Assembly (NCBI GenBank): GCA_023957115.1
Contig: JAMLHN010000003.1
Coordinates: 927 to 64,926 of the forward strand
Direction: 5' to 3'
Length of the DNA: 64,000 bases
Source of the DNA: Thermomicrobiales bacterium
GTDB lineage: Bacteria; Chloroflexota; Chloroflexia; Thermomicrobiales; UBA6265
Shown: piece after piece, positions 4,357-63,192 of the stretch
Layout of the letters: every line of letters starts with the position of its first letter
Numbering within the stretch: the first letter of the stretch is position 1
The notes under the pieces: generated by a model
Seen by the model: the letters and a program-made list of their open reading frames with translations, nothing else
Told to the model about the DNA's origin: nothing
Database searches by the model: none
Made by a program: the position numbers and the translations under genes

Positions 4357-4450
4357 GCTGCCTGCTGCCTGCTGCCTGCTGCCTGCTGCCTGCTGCCTGC
4401 TGCCTGCTGCCTGCTGCCTGCTGCCTGCTGCCTGCTGCCTGCTGCCTGCT
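4357..4450. repeat. Perfect heptanucleotide tandem array (CTGCCTG), about 13.4 copies
   Basis: Read directly. Period 7 with no interruptions. The last unit overlaps the TAG stop (4449-4451) of the minus-strand small ORF. Confidence 0.95.
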
Positions 4451-4655: not shown

Positions 4656-4670
4656 GCGCGCAGTGTACCT

Positions 4671-4848
4671 GAGGACGGGGGAGTTAGGAGTTGGGATCTA
4701 GGAGTTGGGAACGAAGGTCCCGAGTTCCGGGTCCTGAGTCCTGCGAAGATCTGGACAACCGAGCGCGGTATTCGCATCGACCCTTGATCAGGAGACGGTC
4801 GTTGTTCGGGAGCTCCCGAACTCCTAAATCCCAACTCCCAACTCCTAG
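4671..4848. repeat. Composite element: inverted degenerate heptamer arms (GGAGTTR / YAACTCC) around a core of about 100 nt; copy A
   Basis: Left arm gaggacgggggagttaggagttgggatctaggagttgggaac. Right arm cccgaactcctaaatcccaactcccaactcctag. The core is homologous to 13708-13863. The right arm supplies the TAG stop of the HD-domain gene. Confidence 0.85.
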
Positions 4849-11565: not shown

Positions 11566-11840
11566 TAGAGAGGACCTGGGACGGGGATCGATACGGAACC
11601 CGGGTAATACTGTCGCGGATATGAACATGGCAACGGTGCGCGCGTCACCATGTGCCAAGGTCGCCATCAATGGGGGCGCTACGGGCCGGCCATTCGAACC
11701 GGCAACTGGTTCGGATCGCGCCATAGGCTATCCCGCTCCCACTCGGGCGTGTTTGAACACTCGACGACGTGGCTCCGCCCCCGCTGGACCGGCCCGGAAT
11801 CCGTCCGTCCACGCTCCGGCATCAGCCGCCCGGATTGTCG

Positions 11841-11885
11841 CAGGACCCAGGGCTCAGGACGCAGGACCGTTTCAACCACGCCCTA
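11841..11885 (-). repeat. 45-nt dispersed motif directly abutting a stop codon (copy 1)
   Basis: caggacccagggctcaggacgcaggaccgtttcaaccacgcccta matches 50903-50947 at 41/45 positions. It contains CAGGRCN heptamers. The terminal cta is the TAG stop of the 11883..12332 gene. Confidence 0.85.
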
Positions 11886-12332
11886 GATGCGCCGGGATTG
11901 CGCTTGCGCTTCGGCCTCGGATTGGGGGGCGTACGTCCTGATGTACCGCTCGACCTCGACCGGTGTGGACGATCGCAAATCGAAGGCCGGATATTTGTTG
12001 TTCGATGGCAGATAAAGGTAGAAGGTCGATACGACCGGTTCGATCCGTTCCGTCTCGGCCCACCAGTTGTAGAGCTTGGGCAGCCATTCGAAGCTCTCGG
12101 CATTGATACGCCAGAGCGCCACACCGGCGCCGCGCTCGTACGTCAACGCCTCGCCGAAATAGACCGTGGCCTTGGGGTCGGATTCGATGATCCGCAGCAC
12201 GTCCTCATAGTGACGCGGCGAGCCTTTGAGCGAGAATCGCCAGCCATCGATCTTCTTCGGGACCGGCTTGGTCCGATTCAGGGTCCACCAGGGCTGACCC
12301 GGATTGATCTTCGATCGGCTGAGAATGGCCAT
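11883..12332 (-). CDS. Hypothetical protein (149 aa)
   Basis: The ORF has coding-like composition (MAILSRSKINPGQPWWTLNRTKPVPKKIDGWRF...). No family recognised. Confidence 0.5.
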   Translation of the reverse strand: MAILSRSKINPGQPWWTLNRTKPVPKKIDGWRFSLKGSPRHYEDVLRIIESDPKATVYFGEALTYERGAGVALWRINAESFEWLPKLYNWWAETERIEPVVSTFYLYLPSNNKYPAFDLRSSTPVEVERYIRTYAPQSEAEAQAQSRRI

Positions 12333-13695: not shown

Positions 13696-13707
13696 GGGTC
13701 TCCGTGT

Positions 13708-13863
13708 GGGGAGTTCGGAGTTAGGATTTGGGAGTTAGGAACGAATGACTTGTGTCTTGGGTCCTGAGCCCTGAGAAGATCCGAACAACTGAATTCAACG
13801 TTCAGATCGACCTTTGAACCTCAGAAACGTGTTGTCCGGAAACATCCCAGCTCCTAATTCCTC
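13708..13863. repeat. Composite element with inverted heptamer arms and conserved core; copy B
   Basis: Left arm ggggagttcggagttaggatttgggagttaggaac. Right arm atcccagctcctaattcctc. The core (gggtcctgagccctgagaagatccgaacaac...atcgaccttt) aligns with the core of 4671-4848. Confidence 0.85.
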
Positions 13864-22419: not shown

Positions 22420-22538
22420 GTCTTCTGCCGACTGGCGCCGGCTTCGACTTCCTCCTCACTCGGCATCGAGACCCGATGGAATGGGACCTCTCATCCTACT
22501 CCCCATTGGGTCTCGATGCCTTGGGCTACGATCAGTTT

Positions 22539-22638
22539 GGGAGCTGGGAGCTGGGAGCTGGGAGCTGGGAGCTGGGAGCTGGGAGCTGGGAGCTGGGAGC
22601 TGGGAGCTGGGAGCTGGGCTTTCCCAACTCCCAACTCC
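22539..22638. repeat. Perfect (GGGAGCT)x11 array followed by an inverted (CCCAACT)x2 arm
   Basis: 22539-22615 is an uninterrupted period-7 array. cccaactcccaactcc (22623-22638) is the near-complement of the array. It lies between convergent genes and abuts the TAG stop of the SDR gene at 22640. Confidence 0.95.
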
Positions 22639-22639
22639 T

Positions 22640-23377
22640 CTAATACGTGGCGCGGCCGCCGGAGAGGTCGAACACGGCGCCGGTGCTGAACGAGAGATCG
22701 TCCGAGGACAGGAACGCCGCCAGCGCGGCGACTTCCTCTGGCTGTCCGACCCGGCCCATGGGGATCCTGCTGGTCATGTAGCTGATGTGCTCTTCGCTGA
22801 CCTGCGCCAGGATCTCGGTCGCAATCACGGCCGGCGTGATGGCATTGACCAGCACGCCCTTGGTGGCAACTTCCTTGGCGATGGCCTTGGTCAGACCGAT
22901 GACGCCCGATTTTGCCGCCGAGTAGGGCACCGCATTCGGGTTTCCTTCCTTCCCGGCGATCGAGGCGATATTGACGATGCGTCCATAGCCCTGATCGATC
23001 ATGCCGGTGATGAATGTCTGGCATCCGAGGAAAACGCCGGTCAGGTCGATATCGATGACCTGCTTCCACTCCTCGAAGGAGAGCTCCCAGGTTGGGGCGG
23101 AGCGCCCGGCAATACCCGCGTTGTTGACCAGAATGTCGAGGCCGCCGAAGGCCGCGTCGACTTCTTTCTTCGCCGCCTGCCACGATTCGGGCGAGGTGAC
23201 GTCAAGCTGCACGGCAATAGCGCCGCTGCCGATCCGTGCGGCGGTTTCCTTGCCTTTGTCGATGTCGAGATCGGCAATGACCACCTTCGCGCCGTTGCTT
23301 CCCAGCCGGGTGGCAATAGCCGCGCCGATACCACGAGCGCCACCGGTGACGAGGGCGCGCTTTCCTTCGAATTGCAT
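22640..23377 (-). CDS. SDR-family oxidoreductase (FabG-like)
   Basis: Start at ATG 23377 ([22 protein letters not shown]). TGxxxGxG, NNAG and YxxxK (YSAAK) motifs are present. Confidence 0.85.
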
Positions 23378-23459
23378 CGTTTCCTTACTCCATTCGAGCT
23401 CGGGATGACCCCGCAAAATCGTCTGCCGCGATCATGCCACAGCCGGCGAACCTGGACAC

Positions 23460-26171: not shown

Positions 26172-26703
26172 CCGGTCTGTTCCTTTCTTTTCGTTCTCGC
26201 AAGCCCAAAGCTTGCCGCATTCTACCCAAGCGGACGGCGCTGCGGAACGAAAACGGGCCGTACGAGGATGCACGGCCCGGAACGGAGCGCGACGGACCGG
26301 CTGGCGACCCGTCGGAGGCTGGTTCACTGCTTTCTGCTTCGAGGGTAGAACCGGGCCGGCAGTGAGGCAGTGCCGAACGCGACAGCCGTGGTGTGTGTTG
26401 CGACACACACCAGCGGGGGACATCGCAAGCGATGTCAGTGATTCCGTATACAGGTCGGGTGAGCTGCTCTATGCTCTGGGCTAGCGCGAATTGCCGAAGC
26501 GTCTGGACCCGATTCCCCGCCGTTGAAACGCTGGGCTCATACCCCTGTAGTGCGTACGTACGCGGCCGGACAGCTTTGGTTCTCCCTGAACGTCCAGAGC
26601 AGGTTGTCTGAACTCATCTGCAAGGCGCGCTAAACGTGCATCATAGGACCGCAGCGGTTGTGTCTACAGCCGATTGAAGAATGGTTGGCGCTTCCGAACC
26701 CCC

Positions 26704-26745
26704 GGTTGTCATCCTGACGAAGGAAGGATCTCGCCACCGCAGTGT
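26704..26745 (+). repeat. Dispersed motif of about 40 nt (ggttgtcatcctgacgaaggaaggatctcgccaccgcag), copy 1
   Basis: Matches the reverse complement of 50761-50803 at about 35/39 positions. More divergent copies are at 58938-58980 (+) and 63127-63165 (-). Confidence 0.8.
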
Positions 26746-26782
26746 GCGCTCCGACGTCGTGTCAACTGTTCTGCAATCCGCT

Positions 26783-34204: not shown

Positions 34205-37200
34205 TTACTGCGTGTCGAGCACCGTTATCGAGAGATAGGCGGGTGCGCCGCCTTCACGGCTGCCGAGCGCAACCCCCTCACCGCTCACGATGATGGTCAC
34301 CGGTCCATCGGCTGCGATCCAGCCCGTCAGGTCGATCGGCACAGCTACGCCAGCGTCGATCCAGGCGCCCGAGGCTCCCGCACCACCGGGTGCTGAGTTA
34401 AGCGTCAACGAGTATTCGTCGATACCGACTCCATTGGCGACCGCGATGTTGACGGAGCCGCTTCCGCTCACACCGGTGAGATAGAGCACCGCGCTCTGCA
34501 CCTGTCCGTATCCGATCTGGTCCGGATAGAAGGTGATGTAGGCAATGCCGCCCGTTTCGCCGCCGACCGGCAACGAACCGACCTGCTCGCCCGGTTGGAC
34601 CGCGGATGGGTCGACCGATGACACGCTGGTGTCGGACGCGGCCCAGACCTCGAAGGTTCGCTCGATGACCGGCGGAACCGTTGGCTCACCGAGTGGGGTC
34701 GGATCGCAGGCATCGTCGACGCCGTCGCCGTCTGAGTCGTATCCACTGTCGGCGACACCCGGGCAGCTATCGAGCGCATCCTCGACGCCATCCTGATCCG
34801 CATCCGGCACCGGTGTTTCCGTCGGCGGCGCTGGGGTTTCGGTCGGCGGCACGGGAGTCTCCGTCGGCGGAACCGGGGTTTCTGTCGCTGGGACCGGGGT
34901 CTCGGTCGAAGGCGCCACGGTCTCCGCCGGAATCTCGGTTGGCGGCGCCGGAGTCTCGGTTGCGACAGGCTCGGTGGGTTCGGCCGCTTCCGTTGGCTCG
35001 ATCGAGACCGTTGCCGCCGGTAGCTCTCCGACCTCCGTTTCGACGACCGGGCTACCCGGCTCTTCGGACGGCGTGGCGGTCATCGTCGGCGTGATGGTCG
35101 CCAGCGAGTCCGTGGAGCTAACCGGCTCTTCGCCACCCACTGCGCCATTGACCACGCTTGCGGAGACGAGACCCAGGAACTGCCCGGCGACCCAGCCATT
35201 AGGTTGCCCGGTGACCTGGAGCTGGTACCACTGATAGCCATTGGCCGAAACCGGACCGTTGAGCACAGTACCGGTGGTGCCGGTCGGCAACATCCCGAGG
35301 ATCGAGCCCGATGTGCTCGCCGAGCTACGGAAGTTGAGCGGTCCGTCATCGACGCGCACGACATCGCCCGAGATGTACACCCCAGCGGCCCGGGTGGCCG
35401 TGCTGGAGGCAACCGCCGTTCGCGATGGCGTCCGGGTCACCGTGGCTACGCCGGTTGGGGTCGACGCGGTTCCTCCGGTCGGCGAGATGTACGACATGGC
35501 GATCCAGCCGATGATCTGGCCGCTCTGGACGCGCACCCAGACATGACCATTTGCCGAGCGCGAGTCGCCCAGCGAGGTCATCAGCGTTCCGGTCGGCAAC
35601 GTTCCCAGAATCGTGCCCGAGGTCGATGGCGTCTGCCGGATATTGACGCGCGTATTGGTGCGATAGACGCGGCCCGGCACGGTTGTGCTATTGGCACTCG
35701 GGGTGGGGGTGCGGGTGCTGGTAACCGATGCAACCCCGGTTGGAGTAGAGGCTGTGCCGCCGGTTGCGGTCACATAGGACACCGAGAGCCAGCCAATCGA
35801 GGCGCCTGCTTGCACGCGCAACCAGAGATGCCCGTTGGCCGAGGACGTCTGACCCAGCGAGGTGACAAGCGTGCCGGACGGCAGGGTGCGAATGATGGAT
35901 CCAGCGGTCGACGGCGATTGTCGCAGGTTGACGCCAACCCGGACGCGGTAGACCGTTCCAGCGACCGTCGTGCCGCTACCCGGCGAGCTCGTGGTTGGGG
36001 TGCGAGTGGCGGTTGCGGTCCGTGTCGGCGTCGCGGCAGAGGCGGTCTTGGTCAGGTACATCGTGGCGGCCCAGCCAGTGGCTCCGGTGCTGGTGCGCAC
36101 GTTCGACCATTGCAGCCCATCGACCGTGCGCCCGCTGCCGATGATCGTTCCCGTCGTTCCCACCGGCAGCGAGCCGATGATGCCGCCGGAGTAGCCGGGA
36201 GCCGAGCGGAAATTGATCAACGTCGTGACGCGGAACGAATCTCCGAGATTGAGAGCACCGCCGGGGACGACGCTCCCGTTGGGGGTTGCGGTGCGGGTCG
36301 GGGTGCGCGTTGCCGTCGGGCTCCCGCTGACGGTGCCACCCTGGCGCATGTACTGCGCGGCAACCCAGCCGGTCGTTCCGTCGCCGAGCCGAATCTGATA
36401 CCAGTCGAAGTTGTCGATGCGGTTCGGACCCTGCAGCACAACGCCGCTGGTGTTTATGACCAGGAGGCGGATGATGGAGGTGGAGAGTCCTGGGGCGGAC
36501 CGCATATTGAGCGTGTCGGAATCGACGCTGATGGTCGAGCCGATCGCGAAGTTCACGGTTGGGGCGGGTGTCGGCGTCGGGAGCGGAGCCGGAGTCCAGT
36601 CCGAGCCGCCGGGGGTGGTGCCGATCAGAGAGGTCGCATGCTGCACGAACATCTGCATATACGAGTTCGTGGTCGTTCCGGTCACATCGGTGCCATATCC
36701 GAAATAGGCCCCGGCGACCTGGGTCCAGTTATTCGAATTGATGGCGATCGACTTGTTCACCATCTCGGTGCCGCCGGCCAGCACCTGGTTGTAGGCGTTG
36801 TCGCACATCCAGGACACGGACTTCATATATTCGGGAACCGCCGAGGTGGCGCCGATTTGCATGAGTCCGAAGTAGTAGCCGGAGCTGGTCAACGGGGACC
36901 GGGCATTGAGCATGCCGCGCGATTCGACCCACATGATGGCCTTGAGCACATTGGCGGGCACGCCGGTCGAATTGGAGACCGAGAGAATCTCGCTATTCCA
37001 GCGATGGAGATCGGCATAGGTCCAGGTCATCCCGGCCGAGCTGCCGGTATTGCATGGGTAGGGAGTCGCGGTTCGGGTCGGCGTACGCGTGGGGGTCGCT
37101 GTTTGCGCGGCGACCTCGGCCGTGCCGGGAAGGGAGAAGAGCGTGAGTCCGGCGATGATGACGATAGCGATCGTCAGGAAACGTGGATGGGATCGGAATC

Positions 37201-37282
37201 GTCCCGGTTTTCCAGTGTTGCGGTCGAGCGACCGCCGCATCCCGCTGGAAGCAGCGCTCCCATTGGTATTCGACAAAGCCAC
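34205..37282 (-). CDS. Large secreted cell-wall protein: SLT lytic-transglycosylase domain, 5 SH3b domains, Pro/Thr/Glu-rich spacer, TSP3-like Asp-rich repeat, C-terminal beta-rich domain
   Basis: The start is uncertain; GTG 37282 has GGGGGG upstream, and TTG 37324 and ATG 37240 are alternatives. SLT block: ANVLKAIMWVESRG...YFGLMQI. Five LN[MF]RS.P...G.....W..V....G..GWV units. (TETPVPP)n spacer. DADQDGVEDALDSCPGVADSGYDSDGDGVDDACD repeat. Confidence 0.8.
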   Translation of the reverse strand: MALSNTNGSAASSGMRRSLDRNTGKPGRFRSHPRFLTIAIVIIAGLTLFSLPGTAEVAAQTATPTRTPTRTATPYPCNTGSSAGMTWTYADLHRWNSEILSVSNSTGVPANVLKAIMWVESRGMLNARSPLTSSGYYFGLMQIGATSAVPEYMKSVSWMCDNAYNQVLAGGTEMVNKSIAINSNNWTQVAGAYFGYGTDVTGTTTNSYMQMFVQHATSLIGTTPGGSDWTPAPLPTPTPAPTVNFAIGSTISVDSDTLNMRSAPGLSTSIIRLLVINTSGVVLQGPNRIDNFDWYQIRLGDGTTGWVAAQYMRQGGTVSGSPTATRTPTRTATPNGSVVPGGALNLGDSFRVTTLINFRSAPGYSGGIIGSLPVGTTGTIIGSGRTVDGLQWSNVRTSTGATGWAATMYLTKTASAATPTRTATATRTPTTSSPGSGTTVAGTVYRVRVGVNLRQSPSTAGSIIRTLPSGTLVTSLGQTSSANGHLWLRVQAGASIGWLSVSYVTATGGTASTPTGVASVTSTRTPTPSANSTTVPGRVYRTNTRVNIRQTPSTSGTILGTLPTGTLMTSLGDSRSANGHVWVRVQSGQIIGWIAMSYISPTGGTASTPTGVATVTRTPSRTAVASSTATRAAGVYISGDVVRVDDGPLNFRSSASTSGSILGMLPTGTTGTVLNGPVSANGYQWYQLQVTGQPNGWVAGQFLGLVSASVVNGAVGGEEPVSSTDSLATITPTMTATPSEEPGSPVVETEVGELPAATVSIEPTEAAEPTEPVATETPAPPTEIPAETVAPSTETPVPATETPVPPTETPVPPTETPAPPTETPVPDADQDGVEDALDSCPGVADSGYDSDGDGVDDACDPTPLGEPTVPPVIERTFEVWAASDTSVSSVDPSAVQPGEQVGSLPVGGETGGIAYITFYPDQIGYGQVQSAVLYLTGVSGSGSVNIAVANGVGIDEYSLTLNSAPGGAGASGAWIDAGVAVPIDLTGWIAADGPVTIIVSGEGVALGSREGGAPAYLSITVLDTQ

Positions 37283-37543
37283 GAATTCCCCCCAAGCTCG
37301 GCAGTCTGCCCCTGCAAGGACCAAACTGCAGAAGTTGTCCCTGACGAAATCTACGCTGGCTCGTGGCCGCCCGGATCTCTCAGAGACGAATGCTGTGCCC
37401 TGTTGTCACCATCTGATCGGCGCGAACGAATGCTCGAACGATGGGGCGTGACAGGGAACAGGTTCATCGTACCTGACAATAAGTCGCCAAAGCAACCCGA
37501 ACTGTGCGGAGAATGTACACAAAACGATCCCGAATGACGAAAA

Positions 37544-37620
37544 TGTCCGGTGTCCGGTGTCCGGTGTCCGGTGTCCGGTGTCCGGTGTCCGGTGTCCGGT
37601 GTCCGGTGTCCGGTGTCCGG
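37544..37620. repeat. Perfect (TGTCCGG)x11 heptanucleotide array
   Basis: Read directly: 77 bp, period 7, uninterrupted. Confidence 0.95.
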
Positions 37621-37696
37621 AGCGATCGGCGTGCCAAGGCCCGCGCCGAAAATGTATCGAAGGGTCCCATCCCGGGACTCTTCGCTTTACGTTTCT

Positions 37697-37744
37697 CAGG
37701 ACTCAGGACTCAGGACTCAGGACTCAGGACTCAGGACTCAGGAC
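37697..37744. repeat. Perfect (CAGGACT) array, about 7 copies, abutting the fabF stop codon
   Basis: Read directly: 48 bp, period 7. The next three bases (37745-37747, cta) are the TAG stop of fabF. Confidence 0.95.
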
Positions 37745-38980
37745 CTACTCGTATCGCTTGAACAGGGCAACCGCGTTTTGACCGCCGAACCCGAATCCGT
37801 TGACCAGCGCCACATCGACTGGCATCTTGCGCGCAACGTTGGGGACGTAGTCCAGATCGCACTTCGGATCCGGGTCGGTCAGGTTGATCGTCGGCGGCAC
37901 GATGTTGTCGCGGATGGCATAGACACAGGCGATGGCAGAAACACCGCCAGCCGCGCCAAGAAGGTGTCCAACCATCGACTTGTTGGCCGAAGCGGCTAGC
38001 TTGTAGGCATGATCGCCAAAGGCCGTTTTGATGGCATCCGTTTCCGCGATATCGCCAACGTTGGTTGCGGTGGCATGCGCGGCGATGTAGTCGATATCCT
38101 GCGGTTGCAACCCGGACCGCTCGACCGCCAGCGACATCGCCCGGGCGGCATGCTTGCCATTGGGATCGGGCGCGGTGATATGGAACGCGTCGGAGGTGAA
38201 CGCCCCGCCGGTCAGCTCGGCGATGATGTTCGCGCCACGGGCGAGCGCATGCTCTTCCGATTCGACGATCAGGACGCCGCATCCCTCTGAGAAAACGAAG
38301 CCGTCCCGACCGAGATCGAACGGGCGGCTGGCGCCCGCGGGATCGTGGTTGCGCTTGGAAAGGGCACCCATATTGGCCATCGCGGTGATCGACGTGCGGC
38401 GCAGACCCGACTCGGCCCCGCCCGCGATGATGATGTCGGCTTCGTCCCGCTGAATCATCTGCGCTGCCTGGACGAACGCCTGCACACCGGAGGCGCACGC
38501 CGCCGACGACGTCACGGTCGGACCGTGAATCCCGAACGCCATCGAAACCTGGCAGCTGGCCATATTGGGAGCGAAGAGCGCGATGGTCAGCGGGTGCACC
38601 CATTTGGGGCCTTTTTCGACCATAGCTTCGACATTGGCTTCCATGATGGGGATACCGCCCCCACCACTGTTCATGATGACGCCGACCCGCTCGCTCTGCT
38701 CAGGATCGACGGTATACCCCGCATCGTTGAGCGCTTCGGCAGCGGATGCGACCGAAAAATGGGAGAATCGGTCCATCCGCTTCGCCAGCTTCGCATCCAT
38801 GTGGTCCTTTGGATCGAAGTTACGCACTTCGCCGCCGATGCGAACCTCGAGATCGGAAACGTCGAAATTCTCTATCTCGGCGATGCCCGACTTGCCGGCG
38901 AGCATCCCCTCCCAAAGCGTCGACGCGCCGATACCGAGTGGGGAAACAGCTCCTGCGCCGGTCACAACCACTCGCTTCAC
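37745..38980 (-). CDS. fabF: Beta-ketoacyl-ACP synthase II
   Basis: Start at GTG 38980 (VKRVVVTGAGAVSPLG), with GAGGAG 7 nt upstream. Active-site contexts SSAACASG, AHATATNVGD and KSMVGHLLGAAG form the Cys-His-His triad. Confidence 0.9.
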   Translation of the reverse strand: MKRVVVTGAGAVSPLGIGASTLWEGMLAGKSGIAEIENFDVSDLEVRIGGEVRNFDPKDHMDAKLAKRMDRFSHFSVASAAEALNDAGYTVDPEQSERVGVIMNSGGGGIPIMEANVEAMVEKGPKWVHPLTIALFAPNMASCQVSMAFGIHGPTVTSSAACASGVQAFVQAAQMIQRDEADIIIAGGAESGLRRTSITAMANMGALSKRNHDPAGASRPFDLGRDGFVFSEGCGVLIVESEEHALARGANIIAELTGGAFTSDAFHITAPDPNGKHAARAMSLAVERSGLQPQDIDYIAAHATATNVGDIAETDAIKTAFGDHAYKLAASANKSMVGHLLGAAGGVSAIACVYAIRDNIVPPTINLTDPDPKCDLDYVPNVARKMPVDVALVNGFGFGGQNAVALFKRYE

Positions 38981-39154
38981 AGGTAACTCCTCGATTGGGA
39001 ACCCGGACATTGGGCGAGAGCCGTTCGGTGGCCCGGGTTGGGGTCAGCAAAATTGACGATCGAGGGCGGAGCCGCCGATCAACGTGCTAGTGTACGGGAA
39101 ATCCGGCCCAACTCGTAGGAGTAGCCTCGACAAAGGATAGGGTGCACCGATTCC

Positions 39155-39598
39155 ATGATCCCACGTGAGCAACATCCGCGACCGCGGCTGACCCGTATCG
39201 CCTGGACCGATCTGGGCGGCGTCTGGGACTTCGCGTACGACGATGACGATCGCGGACGACGAACGCTGGAATGAGCGCATCGATGTCTTCGACCGTGCGA
39301 TCGCGGTTCCCTTTCCGCCGGAGTCTCCGCTGAGCGGGATCAACGACACCGCGCCCGCACGGAAGCGGCATGGATCGCACAGCTCACGGACCTGGTGAAC
39401 GCCGTGTAGCAGATGCCATCGATCGTGGGCATCTGCTACACACAGCTCACGGACACGGAACGGGAGATCAATGGCTTGCTCACGGCTGACCGAACCCCGA
39501 AAGCCTATCCCGCCCTCATTCGCAGTCTCTTGCAACAACCCGCGAGATCGATGCCGGCGGAAACGACCTTTGGCAGTCTGACCAGCTCGGTCGGGTAG
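39155..39598 (+). pseudogene. Remnant of a GH2-family glycoside hydrolase (N-terminal and C-terminal stubs only, with frameshifts)
   Basis: MIPREQHPRPRLTRIAWTDLGGVWDFAYDDDD, then in another frame ERWNERIDVFDRAIAVPFPPESPLSGINDT, then [27 protein letters not shown]. These are conserved GH2 termini as I recall the family. The roughly 450-aa catalytic middle is absent. Confidence 0.55.
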
Positions 39599-39611
39599 CG
39601 CTTTCGGGTCG

Positions 39612-40595
39612 TCAGCGTCCGCTCAGCGTTGGAATCCCGAGTCCCAATCCTGCCATCGGGATGGTTTGCGCGCCGGGTGCAATGCGCTTGATGAGCCCCG
39701 CAAGCACGGTGCCCGGTCCAATCTCGAAGAAGGTCTTGACTCCGGCATCGGTCATGGTCTGGATCGAGCCGGTCCAGTCGACCGGACGCTCCATCTGCAA
39801 ATCGAGCTCCTCGTAAAGACCCCCGGTGGTGTAGATCGGCTGGGCCGACGTGTTGCCGATCACCATACCGCTCGGTTTCTCCGGGAACTCGGGCAGCGAG
39901 AGCGCCGCATCACGCAGCAGCTTCTGGAATTCCGTATTGGCGCTCGCCATTAGTGGCGAATGCGACGCGATCGAGACATTCAGACGCGCCACCCGGCGCG
40001 CGTTCTTCCCTTGGCGAGTTCCATGGTTGCTTCGAGGCCACGAACATCGCCCGAGATCACGGTCTGGCCCGGGCAATTGCGATTGGCGGGAACGACGACG
40101 CCATCCGCCGAGGCGGTACGGCAAACGTCGGCAATTGCCTCATCGTCGAGTCCAAGCACCGCAGCCATACCGCCGGGATTAACCTCACCGGCTTGTTTCA
40201 TCAGCGGCCGCGCTCGCGAACGAGCGACAGCGCGGTTGAAACCGCATGATCCCCGCCGCGACCAACGCGGAGAACTCACCGAGCGAATGACCGGCGACAT
40301 AATCGGGCGCCAGGGGAACGTCGGCCTCCTGGGCGTTCTCGTTGAGCGCAGCCAGCGCGGCAATGCTGACTGCCAGGATGGCCGGTTGGGCATTGACCGT
40401 GTCTTCCAACGCTTCGGCCGGGCCGTTCTGGATCAGCTCGGTCAGCCCAAAGCCGAGGGTGTCATCGGCCAGCGCCATCATCGCGCGGGCCATCTCGCTG
40501 GCGTCCAGCAACGGTCCGGCCATCCCGACGAACTGGCTTCCCTGTCCCGGGAAAACGAACGCGTACGGTGGGGCTGGAATGGTTGGTTCGGTCAC
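39612..40595 (-). pseudogene. fabD: Malonyl-CoA:ACP transacylase split across three frames by three apparent 1-nt deletions
   Basis: GTG 40595: FVFPGQGSQ...AGHSLGEFSALVAAG, then a shift near 40246; AVSTALSLVRERGR, then a shift near 40205; LMKQAGEVNPGGMAAVLGL...ANRNCPGQTVISG...MELAK, then a shift near 40009; GKNARRVARLNVSIASHSPLM...FFEIGPG. All FabD blocks are present and collinear. Confidence 0.8.
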
Positions 40596-40712
40596 GAATC
40601 GGATCCTCTCGCAAAGGCGGGTTCCCAGTCAGCTGCTCCAATTATTGTCGCAGCAGGCGGACGAGTAGGCGGGGCCGGAGCCCGGAGAAGCCCCCTCAGC
40701 TACGACTGGGTC

Positions 40713-43852: not shown

Positions 43853-43930
43853 TTGTTTCGATACCCTCCTTGGGCGTTATTGGTTCGATTTGGCCCCGTG
43901 AAGGCGCTTTACGCTCTTCTCAGGACACAG

Positions 43931-44017
43931 GACACAGGACACAGGACACAGGACACAGGACACAGGACACAGGACACAGGACACAGGACACAGGACACAG
44001 GACACAGGACACAGGAC
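43931..44017. repeat. Perfect (CAGGACA) array, about 12.4 copies
   Basis: Read directly: 87 bp, period 7. Lies between the ymdB start and the stop of the CUT1 permease gene. Confidence 0.95.
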
Positions 44018-44028
44018 ACGTCGTTCGC

Positions 44029-50419: not shown

Positions 50420-50760
50420 TACGGAATTCGTCTGAACCCGATGGGACGTGGTGACCGTGCCTCGCCACGTTCCCAACGTTGAAACGCTGGGCTAAAACTC
50501 CTTCGTCATCACCGGGATTCCGGACAATTCCGAAGACAGAACTGAAAAGATCATGAACCAGGGGCGGTCGATACCGCCCCTGGTGCTTCTTGCCAATACC
50601 GATCCGGTTACCGGCTCGGTTTGTCGTCGCGATAGCTCACGGGCGCTGGACATCACGCCGGTCGCCGCTCGCGTCGCTGCCCGCTCGCAAGACAGAGACG
50701 TTAAAGCGGATCACAGAATGGTTGGCACGTTGTTGGTGGCGTGTGGCGTCGGAACGCCCG

Positions 50761-50803
50761 CTGCGGCGGGGAGATTCTTCCTTCGTCAGAATGACAACCG
50801 GGG
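50761..50803 (-). repeat. Dispersed motif of about 40 nt, copy 2 (inverted relative to 26704-26745)
   Basis: The reverse complement reads ccccggttgtcattctgacgaaggaagaatctccccgccgcag. Confidence 0.8.
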
Positions 50804-50902
50804 TTTCGGCGCGTCAACTATTCTGAAATCGGCTGTAAGCTCCCAAGGCGTGTTCGAGACTTCGAAGACCTGCCTCCGCAATCAGCCCCACCCAGATCGT
50901 CT

Positions 50903-50947
50903 CAAGACCCAGGGCTCAGGACGCAGGGCCGTTTCGAACACGCCCTA
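50903..50947 (-). repeat. 45-nt stop-codon-abutting motif (copy 2)
   Basis: caagacccagggctcaggacgcagggccgtttcgaacacgcccta. The terminal cta (50945-50947) is the TAG stop of the 50945..51865 gene. Confidence 0.85.
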
Positions 50948-51865
50948 CCTTCCCACCGGCACCGGCGACATGACCGCATCCGGATAGAGCCGCTTGAGCA
51001 TGTCGTACCCGATCCGGGCGCGGCGTAGGCGTTCGCGGGTGAGCGCAATTGCGGTGCTTTCCAGATGGGTGCCCGCTGGATAGATGTTGGGGGCGTTGCG
51101 CAGGCCAAATTTGAGATAGACCGGAGCGCAGACCCGCACTAGCTCGCCGATCTCGTAGTGCCGAATGAATCCGCCGATGTCGTCCGGAACCTCGACATAG
51201 ATATCGAGCGGCATGGTGGTCGCCGCGCGGATCGCCGCCAGCTGAGCCAATGAGAGATCGGTCGGCGTATTGAAGGTGGTCAGACCGAGATCTTGCAGCA
51301 GCCGAACCGAGACTGGATTCGCCGCGCCGAGCATGACCGATCCCTTGAGGATCAAGTCCTGAGGCAATTCACCCGCTTCCTTCATCTTGCCCAGAACGAG
51401 CAGGAGTCCCTCATCGGTCACGAGCACGCTGTTGATGCCATGCTCGAGTGCGCGCTTGACGTCCTCGACCGCGTGGACGAGCTGATCCATGCCACGCGCC
51501 TTCGGCCCGACGATCTTGCCGGCGCTGGAATAGGCCATGGCGCCGGTGTCCCAGCCGGCCCGTGGACCGACGAAGAGGCTTATCTCGATACCGCGCTGGC
51601 GGCCCAGACCGGCCATCTCGTCGAGCTCATCGTCGGTCAGCAACATGACGCCGCTTCCCTGACTGACCCGGTGCAGGGGGACGCCAAACTCGTCAGCCGA
51701 TGCATAGACCGTGCGCAGTGCATTGGGCCCTTCGACCGACGGGATCTCGATACGCCATTGCCCGCCGTCCGGAAAACGTTGATCCGACGATGGCAGATCG
51801 CGCAGATCCCGATCCGGCAGCCCAATGCTGCGGAGAAACGCCTGGGTTCCTTGAATTCCGTTCAC
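50945..51865 (-). CDS. Conserved hypothetical protein (306 aa), last gene of the KAS/NMO operon
   Basis: I trimmed the track ORF to GTG 51865 (VNGIQGTQAFLRSIG...), with GAGGGA 6-7 nt upstream. Composition is coding-like throughout. I do not recognise the family. Confidence 0.5.
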   Translation of the reverse strand: MNGIQGTQAFLRSIGLPDRDLRDLPSSDQRFPDGGQWRIEIPSVEGPNALRTVYASADEFGVPLHRVSQGSGVMLLTDDELDEMAGLGRQRGIEISLFVGPRAGWDTGAMAYSSAGKIVGPKARGMDQLVHAVEDVKRALEHGINSVLVTDEGLLLVLGKMKEAGELPQDLILKGSVMLGAANPVSVRLLQDLGLTTFNTPTDLSLAQLAAIRAATTMPLDIYVEVPDDIGGFIRHYEIGELVRVCAPVYLKFGLRNAPNIYPAGTHLESTAIALTRERLRRARIGYDMLKRLYPDAVMSPVPVGR

Positions 51866-51981
51866 GCGTACTCCCTCGTTGTCATCCGAAACGCCGCCCT
51901 GGCGCTCATCGTGCCCAAAGATTAGCGGGAGATGCGGAGTGCGTGGGGCTGGCATCCCGGCATCATTGCATGGATTCCGTA

Positions 51982-53404: not shown

Positions 53405-53871
53405 AGCGTCTTGGCGGCGAGCCCGGCGGTGACGATGTCGGCGAGATGGTCGGAGACGTGGTTGCCGAAGACCGTCACGATCTTTTCGAGCGTCTGCGTC
53501 CCTGCCTCTGGATGCTGGACCGTCTGCTGCCAGGCATCGCCGGGCAGATTGCGGAGAACGGAGAGATTGACCGAACGGAGCGCGGCCAGCGCATCGAGCT
53601 GCAGATCGTCGGGTACCTTGTCGTACGAGATCCTGGCTTCATAGAGATCTGGATCGAAGGGGGCAAGCTGGCCGCCTGGATTGGCGATCGCAACGCGCAT
53701 GCGGGCCGAGAAGATCAGCTCCGTTTCCAGCAGGTGCTTCAGAATTTGCCGCGCGCTCCAACCCCCGTCGATCGGCTCGTCTCGCCGCGCGGCCGGAATC
53801 TGACGATAGACCATGACGAATTCGGTCATGGCATTGGTCCATTCGGCCAGCTGCGCGCCATGACTGCTCAT
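53401..53871 (-). CDS. DinB-family protein (DinB_2)
   Basis: WSARQILKHLLETELIFSARMR and FGNHVSDHLADI His-containing helices. ATGA overlaps with both neighbouring genes. Confidence 0.65.
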   Translation of the reverse strand: MSSHGAQLAEWTNAMTEFVMVYRQIPAARRDEPIDGGWSARQILKHLLETELIFSARMRVAIANPGGQLAPFDPDLYEARISYDKVPDDLQLDALAALRSVNLSVLRNLPGDAWQQTVQHPEAGTQTLEKIVTVFGNHVSDHLADIVTAGLAAKTL

Positions 53872-55277
53872 TCGAGATCCTCGCTTGTCTGTTGTGCGAA
53901 TTCCTCGGGAGCACGCTTGATGATCAATGCGGCGTTCTGACCTCCAAGTCCGAATCCATGCTTGGCCATATGGTCGAATGCATGTGGGCGCGGCTCGCCA
54001 TGGACCACATCGAGGGCGATGTCGGGGTCGGGATTCTTGTAATTGGCGGTTGGTGGGATGACCTGCTCGGCCATCGAGAGGACGCCCATGGCGGTTTCGA
54101 TGGCGCCGGCTCCGCCCATACAGTGTCCAATGTTCCCTTTGACCGACATGACGGGGATGGACGACGTGCGCTCCCCATAGATCTGATGAATCGCTCGCGC
54201 TTCGGCCACGTCCCCGGCTGGAGTCGAGGCTGCATGAGCCTGAATGTGACCGATCTGATCCGGGTTAACCCCGGCATCGGCCAGGGCGCCCGCAATGGCA
54301 CGGGCGGCCCCGGTGCCATCGGGCTGCGGGGCAATTGGATGGTAGGCGTCATTGCTGGAGGCGAATCCCACGATCTCGGCAAAGACGCGGGCGCCCCGTG
54401 CCATGGCGAAGTCGTAATCTTCGAGCACCAGTGCTCCGGCGCCTTCGCCCAGGGCGAACCCGGCGCGCGTGGCATCGAAGGGACGCAACGCGGACTCGGG
54501 ATGTTCGTTGGAGTCGGTCACCAGGGCGCGCATGGCCGAGAAGCCCGCGACCCCCATTGGGTGGACGGTCGATTCCGTCGCCCCTGCCACCATCAGTGGG
54601 GCGATGCCAGCCTGGATGACGTGGAAGGCCTCACCGATTGCCTGGGTTCCGGTCGCGCACGCCGTCGAGACGGTGTTGCTGGGACCGCCCATTCCGAACC
54701 GCCATTGCACGGTGTAGGACGCCATGTTGAGCGGAAACTTCACATGGAGATGGGGCGAGAGCCGGTCATGTCCTCGCGTATTGAAGGTGTCGTAGGCGGG
54801 GAGGAGATCATCGTAGCTTCCGCCGACGCAGGTGCCGATGACCGATCCACCTGGGAGGAGATCCATCAGTGGCGTCCCCTCGGCATCGATCAGCCCAGCC
54901 GAGATCATCGCGGCGCCGGTCGCCTCCAGCAGCCAGAGACTGAACTGCGAGGTGTTGCGGGCCGTTTTCGGATCCAGGAATCGGTTCGGGAGGTTGTCCA
55001 TGTCCAGATCGCCACGGACCTGGCAGGCGTAGTTGCCGTCCTGGAGATAGGGAATGCGCTTGATGCCGCTCTTCCCATCGAGGATATTGCCCCACGCTTC
55101 TTTGGCGGTCAGGCCGACGGCGCAAACCGCACCCACTCCGGTGACCACCACCCGCCGGCGGGTGCGCGGGCGTTGTCCGCGGAGCCCGCTGCCACAGGCG
55201 CTGCAGAACTGCTGCGTCTCGGAAACCGAGACGCCACAGATTGGACACGAAGTCGACGAAGAGGCAGCGAGGGTCAT
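53868..55277 (-). CDS. Beta-ketoacyl synthase (KAS I/II-type, Cys-His-His) with an N-terminal zinc-ribbon extension
   Basis: ATG 55277, with AGGAA upstream. N-terminus MTLAASSSTSCPICGVSVSETQQFCSACGSGL (CxxC...CxxC), then RRVVVTGVGAVCAVG. Active-site contexts STACATG, AHAASTPAGD and GNIGHCMGGAG. Confidence 0.85.
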   Translation of the reverse strand: MTLAASSSTSCPICGVSVSETQQFCSACGSGLRGQRPRTRRRVVVTGVGAVCAVGLTAKEAWGNILDGKSGIKRIPYLQDGNYACQVRGDLDMDNLPNRFLDPKTARNTSQFSLWLLEATGAAMISAGLIDAEGTPLMDLLPGGSVIGTCVGGSYDDLLPAYDTFNTRGHDRLSPHLHVKFPLNMASYTVQWRFGMGGPSNTVSTACATGTQAIGEAFHVIQAGIAPLMVAGATESTVHPMGVAGFSAMRALVTDSNEHPESALRPFDATRAGFALGEGAGALVLEDYDFAMARGARVFAEIVGFASSNDAYHPIAPQPDGTGAARAIAGALADAGVNPDQIGHIQAHAASTPAGDVAEARAIHQIYGERTSSIPVMSVKGNIGHCMGGAGAIETAMGVLSMAEQVIPPTANYKNPDPDIALDVVHGEPRPHAFDHMAKHGFGLGGQNAALIIKRAPEEFAQQTSEDLE

Positions 55278-55806
55278 GCAGAGTTCCTGAACGATGCGCG
55301 GACACGAGACGATAAATGGCCAAAGCCGCCGGTGAGCGAGTGTAGATCGAAGACCGGCATTGAAAAATCCAGCCAAGTATAGCGGTCTGCTCTGAACGGA
55401 CGAGCGCCCGGCGCGGCTATCAGCCTGCGAAACCGGGCGCTCGATCGTGTCATGTTCGCTGCCGAGGAGTTCGACTCATGGTCGCGAACAGAGATTGCCA
55501 TGAGACGGTGGGGTTTTCTGGACGGGTTGCCCCGGTTCGAAGACCGGTCAACCGTACTGGGGAGTGTAAGAGGATGTTAGAAGTCGATCGGGTGGCTACG
55601 CCCGGTCGTCGACATGCCTCCTGGTGCTCAATTGGGTTCCCCCTTTCGTTGCAAGCACCCTGGTTGACCCCGAGTTTCCCCGGGTGCCCGGCAAGATGAA
55701 CGACGCATCGCTGCAACTGAAATTGCGCCGTTCACTCCAGTAAACGCGGGAGCCTGGAAAAAGGTTTCATGGCGTACGTACGGCTGGGGCGGAACGAGTA
55801 GGCGGG

Positions 55807-55872
55807 ACCGGAGTCCGGAGGCCGGAGAAGAACGACTCGAACCGCGTGCCGTAGCTTCCTCCGGGCTCCGGC
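55807..55872. repeat. Small inverted-heptamer hairpin: (CCGGAGN)x3 ... (NCTCCGG)x2
   Basis: accggagtccggaggccggagaag ... cttcctccgggctccgg forms 6+7 bp helices with single-base bulges. The left arm plus adjacent core (gtccggaggccggagaagaacgac) matches 4211-4234 at 22/24 positions. Confidence 0.7.
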
Positions 55873-58775: not shown

Positions 58776-58864
58776 TGCGGGCGCGGGGATGCCAGCACAA
58801 TCGAGAACGCACCGGACCTCCGGCGAGTTTCGCTGGCAGATGGTAGCAGGTGAAGCTTAAGGAA

Positions 58865-59052
58865 CGCAGGTAGCAGGTAGCAGTTGGTTGTCAGCAGTCA
58901 GTCATCGGCAGTTGGGAGCAGATTGCCATGGCACCAACCGTCGTCCCGGGCGAAACCGAGGGATCTCGTCGCCACAGCGAGCCGGACCAACTGCGAACCA
59001 TGCGCTCAGACAGCCGACAGCTAACTGCTCATGAAAACTGACTGCCGACTGC
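58865..59052. repeat. Composite element with degenerate GCAGNNN-type heptamer arms and an internal copy of the 40-nt motif
   Basis: Left arm gcaggtagcaggtagcagttggttgtcagcagtcagtcatcggcagttgggagcag. Right arm cagccgacagctaactgctcatgaaaactgactgccgactgctcg (inverse-like). The core carries gtcgtcccgggcgaaaccgagggatctcgtcgccacagcg. Confidence 0.7.
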
Positions 59053-59598: not shown

Positions 59599-59778
59599 CT
59601 TCTCTTCCTTCGAGCGGGGGTAGAGGGATGGTAGCCGAAAGCGCTCGTACGTACAAGGATCGGAAACCGCGTTATGTTCTGAGGATTCCCAAATTTCCGT
59701 ATCTTCTTGACAGAACCTCACGAGCGCCGCTGATTTTTCCGCAACGACGGGAGGAGCGAGGAGCTGGGATCTGGGAGC

Positions 59779-60790
59779 TAGAGCAAAGACCTAAAGGGTT
59801 GCCAATGTGGCACGATCGTGCCATGCTGTGGCCATGCCCCGTGCCTATTCGGTCGACCTCCGTGAACGGGTGATGGCAGCCGTGGCGGACGGCTGCTCCA
59901 TTGCTGAGGCGGCCCACCGGTTTTCCGTCAGGGTCGATGCGATCTATGACTGGCGGCGCCGACAGCAGACCACCGGGTCGCTGGCGCCGACGACCCACCA
60001 CTGCGGACGCCCTCGTCGCGTGAGCCCGGAGATGGATCGGGCACTGCAGGCGCAGATCGACGCGGAGCCCGATGCTACCCTGACCGAATTGCAGGCGTGG
60101 CTGGCCACGGAGCATGGGCTCGTCGTCGGTCGTGGCACGGTCATTCGGGCCGTGGCGCGACTGGATCGTCCCCGAAAAGAGTCTGATCGCCACCGAGCGC
60201 GATCCTGAGCAGCGGGCAGCGTGGCACCAGGACCAGGCGCGGTTGGTGGCCGACGATCTGGTCTTTCTGGACGAAACCAGTACCCAGATCACCCTGACCC
60301 GCCGCCATGGCCGAGCCCTACCGTGGGCACCGGCTGGTCGCGGCGGTTCCCCGCAACCACGGACGCAACGTCACCTGCCTGGCCGCGTTGCGCACAACCG
60401 GAGTGGGACCATCCCTGGTCTTCGAAGGTGCGCTCAATGGACCGGTCTTTGCCCAGTGGGTGCGCACGCAGTTGGTACCGACCTTGCGACCGGGTCAGAT
60501 CGTGATCCTGGACAACCTGAATGTGCATAAGGCTCCCGAGGCGCGGCGGGCCATTGAGGCCGCTGGGTGTCAGCTGCGCTTCCTGCCAGCCTATTCGCCG
60601 GACTTCAATCCGATCGAACTGGTCTTCAGCCGGCTCAAGACCCACCTGCGCACCATCGCCGCACGCACGGTCGATGCCTTGATGACGGCAATCGGGGATG
60701 GGCTCAATGCCGTCACCGCCACCGATGCCCGCAACTGCGTGCGCATGCTGGGTATTCCTAACCAGGGCGACCTTTTCGGTCTGCGCTCTA
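59779..60790 (+). mobile_element. IS630-family insertion sequence (about 1.0 kb) with TA target-site duplication in a CTAG site
   Basis: Imperfect terminal inverted repeats: ctagagcaaagacctaaagggttgcc at the left, versus the reverse complement of the right end, ctagagcgcagaccgaaaaggtcgcc. TA at 59779-59780 and 60789-60790. It encodes an IS630-type HTH plus DDE transposase. Confidence 0.8.
59834..60788 (+). pseudogene. IS630 transposase split over three frames (two +1 shifts at C-runs)
   Basis: MPRAYSVDLRERVMAAVADGCSIAEAAHRF...ARLDRP, shift near 60170; EKSLIATERDPEQRAAW...VFLDETSTQITLTRRHGRA, shift near 60317; YRGHRLVAAVPRNHGRNVTCLAAL...ILDNLNVHK...LPAYSPDFNPIELVFSRLK. No in-frame stop occurs before the right IS end. 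Confidence 0.75.
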
Positions 60791-60822
60791 GGAATTGGGT
60801 GTCGGGAGTTGGCCGGGCCTAC

Positions 60823-62653: not shown

Positions 62654-62914
62654 ATGGAAATGACCGAAGCCGCCCAACTGGGATATGCGCAGTTCTGGAA
62701 GCGGATGTCGATGCATATCGGCTTGAGTGAGGCTGCCAGGGCAGTCGGTGGGATCAAAGCGTCCCAGCTCAGCGCATTCGAGCAGGGGAAAGCGCATTCG
62801 CTTTCGGACGAGGACATCCAGCGCTATATCGACTATCTCGACCGGCGTAAAGCCGAACAACCACCTCATATTCCAACCGACGACGAGCTGCCTGTCTTCT
62901 CCGACGAAGACTGA
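62654..62914 (+). CDS. Small putative HTH (XRE-like) protein (86 aa)
   Basis: ATG with GAGGA upstream. [25 protein letters not shown] resembles an XRE-type helix-turn-helix. Acidic tail. Confidence 0.45.
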
Positions 62915-62920
62915 CAATTT

Positions 62921-63011
62921 GGGAGCTGGGAGCTGGGAGCTGGGAGCTGGGAGCTGGGAGCTGGGAGCTGGGAGCTGGGAGCTGGGAGCTGGGAGCTGGG
63001 AGCTGGGAGCT
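62921..63011. repeat. Perfect (GGGAGCT)x13 heptanucleotide array
   Basis: Read directly: 91 bp starting 7 nt after the stop of the HTH gene. Same unit as the 22539 array. Confidence 0.95.
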
Positions 63012-63165
63012 GGGCGAACACCCGGCGGCCCGAGCGATGCGGAGGGCCCCTCACTCCTCGCCATTTGGGAGAAACCCTGTAGGTATACAGGGGTAATGAG
63101 CTCCTGACTTCAGTCTGGAGATAACTCTCCCCTTCGCTGCGCTTCCGTCGGGACGGCGGCTCGAT

Positions 63166-63192
63166 CCCCAACTCCTATATCCCAACTCCTCA
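63166..63192. repeat. Inverted heptamer arm (ccccaactcctatatcccaactcctc) pairing with the 62921 array
   Basis: Near-complement of GGGAGYT units. Together with the array it brackets a core of about 150 nt containing the palindrome ccctgtaggtatacaggg and a divergent copy of the 40-nt motif (63127-63165). Confidence 0.75.

Follow-up and report, generated by a model that had tools for sequence, protein, structure and literature searches.

Perfect heptanucleotide arrays next to stop codons in a Thermomicrobiales genome and their proposed origin from hairpin arms

We have analyzed a stretch of 64,000 nucleotides from the genome of a soil Thermomicrobiales bacterium (contig JAMLHN010000003.1, hereafter the window; G+C content about 62%) in which six arrays of perfectly repeated 7-nt units are found between the genes. 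The arrays are heptanucleotide long simple sequence repeats (long SSRs), the class that includes the short tandemly repeated repetitive (STRR) sequences of cyanobacteria and the GGGAATC repeats of Xanthomonas. Sequence comparison with relatives shows them to be of recent origin and restricted to this lineage, and two or more of them occupy sites where a hairpin arm phased in heptamers already existed. We favor, with moderate confidence, the explanation that the arrays are the arms of stop-proximal hairpin elements, already phased in heptamers, that have grown by slippage, with no need of a dedicated function.

Run over the whole window, Tandem Repeats Finder (TRF) recovered all six of the perfect arrays on which the original prediction was built, with 7.1 to 14.1 copies, 100% matches and 0% indels in each. 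Array 1 is GCTGCCT x13.4 (4357-4450, minus strand, where it reads T-(AGCAGGC)n). Array 2, TGGGAGC x11.6 (22538-22618, strand not assigned), lies between the convergent PAP2 and SDR genes. Arrays 3 and 4 share one spacer and are TGTCCGG x11.0 (37544-37620, minus strand, (CCGGACA)11 in the sense of the FabF and SH3 genes) and CTCAGGA x7.1 (37695-37744, minus strand, (GUCCUGA)7 in the FabF sense). Array 5 is CAGGACA x14.1 (43921-44019, minus strand, (GUGUCCU)14 in the sense of an ABC permease gene); it had been described as about 12 copies from 43931, so that its existence stands and its extent and copy number are corrected. Array 6 is TGGGAGC x13.6 (62920-63014, plus strand). In all of them the units follow each other head to tail, in at least four copies as in heptanucleotide long SSRs, and the copy number ranges from 7 to 14 without a preferred length. 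The contiguity of the units, with no unique spacers between them, rules out a CRISPR array. A strict self-match scan at lags 4 to 11 gave tracts at lag 7 alone (zero at 4-6 and at 8-11), and the chance expectation is of about 1e-7 such arrays per 64 kb. The GGGNNNN quadruplex pattern, with at least four consecutive units carrying G3, was present only in arrays 2 and 6, the other four having no G3 tracts; as a sequence motif, (GGGAGCT)n agrees with the G3N1-7 (G3N4) quadruplex pattern from four copies upward and could in principle fold in this way.

The gene map was drawn with a codon model and checked with Pfam, and all six arrays fall outside the called, Pfam-supported genes. Open reading frames (ORFs) that span the arrays have coding scores of -0.04 to -0.39 per codon outside the array, whereas the called genes score +0.27 in the median and never below +0.05, indicating that the arrays are non-coding. 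The description of the arrays as strictly intergenic is therefore correct for these six. The general rule given with it, by which no 7-nt unit could be coding, does not hold strictly, since 21 nt encode seven residues in any frame, although the non-coding verdict is right here.

The distances from arrays 1 to 6 to the nearest stop codon are -2, 21, 124, 0, 9 and 5 nt, in agreement with the claim that four of them end within 0-12 nt of a stop. A small ORF for a tail-anchored membrane protein (4449-4655, minus strand) ends in a TAG of which 2 nt belong to array 1, and array 2 has the SDR stop at 21 nt. Array 4 begins 0 nt past the FabF TAG (37745-37747), between this stop and a terminator-like hairpin. 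Array 5 lies 9 nt past the TAA of the ABC permease gene, with the start of YmdB 68 nt further on, and array 6 lies 5 nt past the TGA of a small HTH-like ORF (62654-62914). Compared with random placement of each array inside its own gap, this proximity gave a Fisher combined p of ~9e-5. The downstream start codons are 59-445 nt away; three arrays are upstream of co-directional genes and two are between convergent genes. Degenerate heptamer tracts of the window also start at or inside stops (those of IlvD, an HD-domain gene, SDR, two genes with a common 60-74-nt element and a NUDIX gene), and TAG is enriched among the heptamer-adjacent stops (9/12 vs 10/42, p = 0.002). The stop positions of FabF, the permease and SDR are identical to those of the orthologues in relatives, indicating that the arrays follow ancestral stops and did not remodel the proteins; for these three genes a heptamer tract as supplier of the stop codon is ruled out. 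A Shine-Dalgarno or anti-Shine-Dalgarno logic can be discarded as well, the GGGAG-type arrays being in sense after stops and the AGGA-type ones in antisense.

Anatomical support for an origin from hairpin arms comes from the partners of arrays 2 and 6, the fold of a composite element and the complementarity of arrays 3 and 4 around a hairpin. Three nucleotides after array 2 there is an unexpanded inverted partner, TCCCAAC x2.4 (TCCCAACTCCCAACTCC, 22622-22639), which directly abuts the SDR stop (22640-22642). Array and partner fold together as a hairpin of which array 2 is the expanded arm (z = -5.6 for the region 22525-22645). Array 6 has an inverted degenerate partner, CCCCAACTCCTATATCCCAACTCCTC, some 150 nt downstream (63166-63191). 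The composite hairpin element A (4673-4850) abuts the TAG of the HD-domain gene. Its arms are GGAGTTR heptamers (4680-4709 and 4816-4845, 90% complementary) that enclose a GTCCTGA-type tract (4716-4745), and its fold energy is -100 kcal/mol (z = -6.6, region 4665-4860). A homologue, element B (13700-13860), is 72% identical to it over 157 nt and has the GGGAGTT-type and GTCCTGA-type tracts in identical order. No copy of the A/B core was found among ~250 fetched loci.

The spacer between FabF and the SLT/SH3 cell-wall hydrolase gene contains arrays 3 and 4. Read on the FabF strand, it consists of the TAG, (GUCCUGA)7, 10 nt, a hairpin and after it AUACAUUUU, 37 nt, (CCGGACA)11, a leader of ~300 nt and the start codon at 37240. 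The hairpin between the two arrays (37658-37684) resembles a terminator. Seven of its 11 pairs are G-C, and its tail is T-rich on the plus strand and reads AUACAUUUU on the minus strand. No promoter-like site was found in the spacer. In the minimum-energy fold, arrays 3 and 4 pair with each other as stacked 4-bp GUCC/GGAC helices. When the spacer was aligned with those of four relatives of the same gene order, the SH3-proximal part was conserved and the FabF-proximal hairpin module alone was changed. After the FabF stop these relatives (L001, L002, L003 and L005) have a single short hairpin of degenerate heptamers, such as TAG GAGCTCG AAGCCAG GAGCCCA... or TGA..GCTGGGA GCCGGGA GCC...GGCTCCCAGC, which in the window is replaced by the two arrays and the central hairpin. 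The two arrays had been called unrelated, and in this the original prediction is not supported: TGTCCGG matches the reverse complement of CAGGACT (AGTCCTG) at 5/7 positions, both arrays flank one hairpin and jointly they occupy the site of a single hairpin in the relatives.

The same spacer contains a conserved leader of the SLT/SH3 gene, of about 250-280 nt (37241-37470 in the window, minus strand, 11345-11592 in L001 and equivalents in the others). It has the invariant blocks CGTAGA..TCAGGGAC and GAGCTTGGGGGGAA..GTGGCTT, and RNAalifold predicted 56 pairs, 10 of them with compensatory changes, making this leader a candidate for an undescribed structured leader or riboswitch. In Rfam the window had no match at the gathering thresholds, nor had the region 37150-37800 at E values up to 1. 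Within the SLT/SH3 gene itself (34805-34916), an imperfect repeat of period 21/42 codes for a low-complexity linker, and a similar 39-nt repeat is found at the same place in relatives (13975-14093 in L001).

The comparison with relatives is what makes the arrays look recent. Three relatives with FabF proteins 91% identical (contigs of 290-824 kb) had no perfect heptamer array in ~60 kb and no more than a single degenerate tract in each 20 kb, located at the FabF stop; nine near-identical contigs of one relative had no arrays either. At orthologous array sites the relatives carry 0-2 copies. In L245, whose YmdB is 93% identical, the site of (GTGTCCT)14 reads TAG..GTCCAGC GTCCAGT..loop..CGGACACTGGAC, that is, a hairpin arm of two units, and a more distant relative has at the permease-YmdB site a spacer of 20 nt without heptamers. 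That the arrays are recent, as the original prediction had it, is supported by their absence from ~60 kb of the three relatives and also at the sites orthologous to them.

With a looser threshold, nine further degenerate lag-7 tracts of 28-38 nt each were found. All 15/15 lag-7 tracts of the window are intergenic, while the other lags gave zero intergenic tracts, and they are spread along the whole 64 kb. Degenerate heptamers do exist outside the arrays, then, but the claim that they fill most other long gaps was too strong: only 13/27 gaps of at least 150 nt hold any tract, heptamer DNA amounts to ~800 of 12,529 intergenic nt (about 6%) and the bulk intergenic lag-7 excess is weak once the perfect arrays are excluded. 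AGTCCGG AGCGCGG AGTCCGG CGGCCGG (4196-4223, plus strand) starts inside the IlvD TAG. A CAGGACN tract (11837-11869, minus strand) belongs to a 60-74-nt element past the stop of the gene at 11883-12332. This element (TAGGGCGTG..GAAACGGYCCTGCGTCCTGAGCCCTGGGTC) has two copies 84% identical (11814-11885 and 50874-50947), both beginning at the TAG of unrelated genes, the second after the gene at 50945-51955. The others include ACCGGAG TCCGGAG GCCGGAG (55800-55827), a short (GCAGGTA) x2.6 (58864-58894) and a GGGAGCT-type tract after the stop of the NUDIX gene, split in two halves (59746-59780 and 60791-60815) by an insertion of the IS630 family. Besides, arrays 4 and 5 have flanks in common (86% over 64 nt), and ordinary terminator stems of the window (CAGGACGGGACGC, CCCGGGAGC and GAGGCAGGC) use array-like words such as CAGGACG, GGGAGC and GGCAGGC.

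The insertion sequence (IS) that splits the NUDIX tract occupies 59779-60790, with an HTH ORF at 59807-60208 and a DDE_3 ORF from 60307. The inverted repeats at its termini, GAGCAAAGACCTAAAGGGTTGCC (59781-59803) and GGCGACCTTTTCGGTCTGCGCTC (60766-60788), agree at 18/23 positions, and on both sides of it a TA is duplicated within CTAG. The IS630 family reportedly prefers CTAG as target, and GCTAGG variants in the heptamer tracts offer such a target. The transposase as a source of the heptamers is ruled out, its terminal repeats (GAGCAAAGACC...) being unrelated and the element having inserted at CTAG inside a heptamer tract. Another dispersed element, of ~90 nt with the core GTCATCCTGACGAAGGAAGGATCTC, is present at 26665-26756 and, inverted, at 50747-50837, the two copies being 85% identical. 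It also appears in L257 (about 2290-2390), between the SDR stop and the terminator, in this one relative and not in nine others; on the evidence of these sequences its behavior is like that of a miniature inverted-repeat transposable element (MITE).

Arrays of this kind are widespread. When one genome per species was scanned for (GGGAGCT)4, the matches listed contained more than 115 loci, often several per genome, in Acidobacteriota, Planctomycetota, Verrucomicrobiota, Bacteroidota, Gammaproteobacteria, Actinomycetota, Gemmatimonadota, Chloroflexota and others, and a metagenome scan for (GTCCTGN)4 gave at least 120 contigs. In the ~235 loci fetched from other genomes the extra perfect arrays had period 7 in 70/79 and 43/66 cases. 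Their units were very diverse, except for single-substitution variants beside the (GGGAGCT)n seed, and this diversity rules out a universal special unit. The dominance of period 7 together with the diversity of units indicates that the phenomenon is specific for the period and not for the sequence. In the complete genome of Tepidiforma flava (CP115149; loci L070 and L086) there are two paralogous composite elements of ~450 nt, with the order conserved flank, variable GGGAGNN arrays, GGGAGGGAGGATAA, variable (CCTCCAA)n and conserved flank. Their flanks are 82-85% identical, and between them the paralogues differ in having (CCTCCAA)13 vs (CCTCCAA)3 and different GGGAGNN blocks, which is gain and loss of units of the kind that slippage predicts.

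The origin that we propose would start from seeds, short hairpin elements directly 3' of stop codons with arms of two to four phased 7-nt units belonging to the families GGGAGYT/ARCTCCC, GTCCTGN/NCAGGAC and CAGGCAG. In an arm that has come to contain a few identical units, whole units would be gained or lost by slipped-strand mispairing as the DNA is replicated or repaired. A loop of 7 nt is too large for MutS-type mismatch repair; such loops would escape it and leave slippage unchecked. One arm, or both as may have happened here, would then grow to a perfect array of 7-14 copies, and the partner arm would stay short or decay. Selection would restrict the arrays to the unconstrained stretch that goes from the stop codon to the terminator or the next promoter, where they would be transcribed as a 3'-untranslated region (3'-UTR) hypervariable in length, presumably neutral, although they may change the strength of the stop-proximal structure.

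Several points weigh against this origin by slippage. The pairing of arrays 3 and 4 is no more stable than that of shuffled sequence (z = -1.8), and a metagenome search for the junction of the FabF stop with the array gave no match. At the SDR site the relatives have a canonical terminator unrelated to the element of the window, which there looks newly arrived and not grown in place. Slippage alone explains neither the period of 7 over 5, 6 or 8 nor the starts 0-9 nt from stops. There are also biases of orientation and polarity for which neutral slippage does not account. Among the matches listed, 96 (GGGAGCT)n arrays had adequate flanks, and taking ORFs of at least 100 codons (many of 300-690), 18 arrays started -2 to +6 nt past the stop of the sense ORF in the G-rich reading and 3 in the C-rich one (binomial p ~0.0015). 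The phase of the junction between array and stop varies among loci. Inverted CTCCC-type partners were downstream of (GGGAGCT)n in 11 cases and upstream in 1. For GTCCTGN the orientation bias within 9 nt of a stop was 12 vs 4, with the reservation that the commonest unit contains TGA. The biases of orientation and polarity point to a component at the RNA level, or linked to transcription, that is outside the simple model. A bolder reading, to which we would give a small chance only, is that heptamer arrays are not random microsatellites but a polar, cross-phylum element anchored to stop codons, starting where the terminating ribosome no longer covers the RNA, with the G-rich strand in the sense of the mRNA and the G arm ahead of the C arm. 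The expansion would then proceed via R-loops or quadruplexes in the naked G-rich nascent RNA, or the structure would be selected for tuning termination and 3'-end stability. If true, either version would connect the termination of translation with a process of mutation or regulation that is sequence-specific, and the preference for period 7 would become more accessible to study.

The arrays might also be hypervariable arms of a dispersed, possibly mobile family of hairpins, similar to repetitive extragenic palindromic (REP) sequences or MITEs, that inserts at or next to stops, the arrays spreading with the element. This overlaps with the origin by slippage from local hairpins and differs from it mainly in how the seeds arrive. 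In its favor, the homology of elements A and B extends over 157 nt and keeps the order of the two heptamer families, arrays 4 and 5 have common flanks (86% over 64 nt), the 60-74-nt CAGGAC element occurs twice right after a stop and the SDR site has an element in the window where relatives have a plain terminator. The ~450-nt paralogues of Tepidiforma flava, with conserved flanks around their arrays, and the enrichment in TAG of the heptamer-adjacent stops (9/12 vs 10/42, p = 0.002) go in the same direction. However, the genes of the window include no REP-associated tyrosine transposase (RAYT), IS200 or other mobilizing candidate, and the sole transposase, that of the IS630 family, has unrelated terminal repeats and sits inside a heptamer tract. 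The A/B core is absent from the ~250 fetched loci, neither target-site duplications nor distinct ends of the elements could be made out, and the phase of the junction with the stop varies between loci. We consider a mobile family possible but doubtful. A function in RNA, in which the arrays act against the stop as 3'-UTR elements (a long hairpin, an RNA G-quadruplex in the case of GGGAGCU or a phased platform for protein binding) and control termination, ribosome release, 3'-end stability or polarity, seems to us unlikely. They would work in the manner of the REP elements that in E. coli lie no more than 15 nt from stop codons, as reportedly described by Liang, Rudd and Deutscher in 2015. The spacing of 0-9 nt from stops, the orientation that is G-rich in the mRNA sense across phyla (18 vs 3), the polarity with the G arm first (11 vs 1) and the match of (GGGAGCT)n of at least four copies to the G3N1-7 motif, which might allow a quadruplex, would all suit a function of this kind. 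The same preference is found in Xanthomonas and Nostoc, where most repeats are transcribed, but the Xanthomonas study found no regulatory role (PMC4692102). In the window the arrays are not conserved, being absent from the orthologous sites of close relatives, the units differ by site and have opposite senses (GUCCUGN after FabF and the permease, GGGAGCU after the HTH ORF), the 7-14 copies show no preferred length, and there is neither csrA nor another candidate binder among the genes.

That the arrays are contingency loci for phase variation, switching the SLT/SH3 wall hydrolase, YmdB and the gene at 63430 through the spacing of promoter or leader, is very improbable in our opinion. Three arrays are indeed upstream of co-directional genes, perfect arrays are mutable and the SLT/SH3 product is a surface or cell-wall protein. 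Yet the arrays hug the upstream stop with the downstream starts 59-445 nt off, two of them are between convergent genes, they lie outside ORFs and the FabF-SH3 spacer has no promoter-like site; the adjoining genes are of ordinary metabolism and transport, as in Xanthomonas (PMC4692102). As for an artefact of assembly or sequencing, nothing favors it other than the general difficulty of assembling repeats, and we give it hardly any credit. The arrays are at most 99 nt long with unique flanks and consistent gene contexts, arrays of the same kinds are present in over 230 public contigs of independent origin, complete genomes such as that of Tepidiforma flava (CP115149) among them, and an artefact would not keep to intergenic DNA as the arrays do.

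There is prior evidence of similar repeats in other bacteria. The cyanobacterial STRR units are CCCCAGT, TTGGTCA and CAACAGT; those of the window are GCTGCCT, GGGAGCT, TGTCCGG, CAGGACT and CAGGACA and their host is a member of the Thermomicrobiales and not a heterocystous cyanobacterium, so that identity with STRR1-3 is ruled out. The repeat heptamer of CsrB is CAGGA(U/C/A)G, and the CAGGAC[A/T] arrays resemble it; a CsrA sponge of the CsrB/RsmZ type is ruled out, however, by their antisense orientation to both flanking genes, the lack of a promoter-like site and the absence of csrA in the window. The REP sequences and bacterial interspersed mosaic elements (BIMEs) of enterobacteria and pseudomonads, intergenic imperfect palindromes that come directly after stop codons, often in inverted pairs, and are transcribed into 3'-UTRs, offer an analogy in their stop-proximal structure. 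In the window, hairpins of significant stability were found at 22525-22645 and 4665-4860, and the pairing in the FabF spacer was not significant. REPs are dispersed units tied to RAYT transposases and not tandem heptamers or slippage arrays, and no RAYT (Y1 transposase) gene was found among the genes of the window. The STRR sequences were held by the original prediction to be the only comparable system. As an analogy this is sound, both being tandem intergenic heptamers with several families per genome (Mazel et al., 1990, as cited in PMC4692102). As a statement of uniqueness, extended to there being no equivalent in a GC-rich non-cyanobacterial genome, it is contradicted by the published cases of Xanthomonas (GGGAATC), Geobacter (GGGACCG) and Beggiatoaceae (TAACTGA). 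The GGGAATC repeats of Xanthomonas were found at 186 loci with 2-26 units, of which 89-93% were intergenic; the mean distance was 28 nt to the upstream ORF and 160 nt to the following one, many form inverted pairs, their length varies between species, they are mostly transcribed with no regulatory role found, and the neighboring genes are of ordinary metabolism or transport type (Rehm et al., 2015, PMC4692102). The intergenic GGGGA(C/T)T heptamers of Nostoc are described in the same paper, in Geobacter metallireducens 49 elements contain GGGACCG repeated four times (PMC2700814) and TAACTGA repeats are common to Beggiatoaceae, cyanobacteria and Bacteroidetes (MacGregor, 2015, PMC4679880).

The arrays of the window resemble those of Xanthomonas and Nostoc in being tandem 7-nt units, intergenic, nearer to the end of the upstream ORF and with inverted pairs able to form stem-loops, as well as in favoring the G-rich strand in the sense of the upstream gene. 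The GC-rich host recalls the Xanthomonas case, and the GGGAGCT arrays fit the G3N4 quadruplex pattern. They differ in units and phylum, in having several unrelated unit families side by side, in that CAGGACA, TGTCCGG and GCTGCCT cannot form quadruplexes, in being tighter to the stop (0-9 nt) and in the lack of a modal length of four units. With the TAACTGA repeats, whose arrays reach up to 43 copies, they have in common intergenic heptamers in direct repeat and a patchy spread across phyla; those are, in contrast, AT-rich and located few nucleotides upstream of start codons, and the window arrays are GC-rich and after stops. Long SSRs with units of 5-11 bp (LSSR5-11) were reported from free-living bacteria with large genomes, with the strongest over-representation in heptamers (Mrazek, Guo and Shah, 2007, cited in PMC4692102), and the dominance of period 7 in the window and in the ~235 fetched loci agrees with it. 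That work was a statistical survey, and is not known to deal with an origin from hairpin arms or with abutment to stop codons. In the literature we found nothing on these exact units, nor on heptamers in Chloroflexi or Thermomicrobia.

Regarding the other features of the neighborhood, FabF (37745-39010, minus strand) and SDR (22640-23416, minus strand) had best matches 82-93% identical, among proteins of Thermomicrobiales metagenome-assembled genomes, and no tRNA or tmRNA was found in the window. FabD (malonyl-CoA-ACP transacylase) is present at 39011-40630 in fragments only, and the relatives have it intact, with 328 aa, directly upstream of FabF. An ORF at 40185-40595 matches the first third of Acyl_transf_1, and between it and FabF there are short ORFs without family matches; the fragments could be a pseudogene or the result of frameshifts. 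A second beta-ketoacyl synthase paralogue (53868-55151) adjoins DinB, DUF2568 and NMO genes. In the relatives this gene group is upstream of the FabD-FabF cluster, indicating that the local synteny is rearranged in the window.

Heptanucleotide repeats have been known in cyanobacteria since 1990 and their over-representation in many bacteria since the survey of 2007. In practical terms, such arrays break short-read assemblies and yield spurious ORFs of repeat peptides in annotation. Tepidiforma flava is a cultured organism with the same kind of arrays, in which the dynamics of the heptamers can be tested. What is new here is the presence of heptamer arrays in Thermomicrobiales, where several unit families coexist, two comparisons of orthologous sites in which the proto-repeat state appears as a hairpin arm, and the evidence from public genomes that (GGGAGCT)n arrays of many phyla start a few bases from a stop codon in a fixed orientation.

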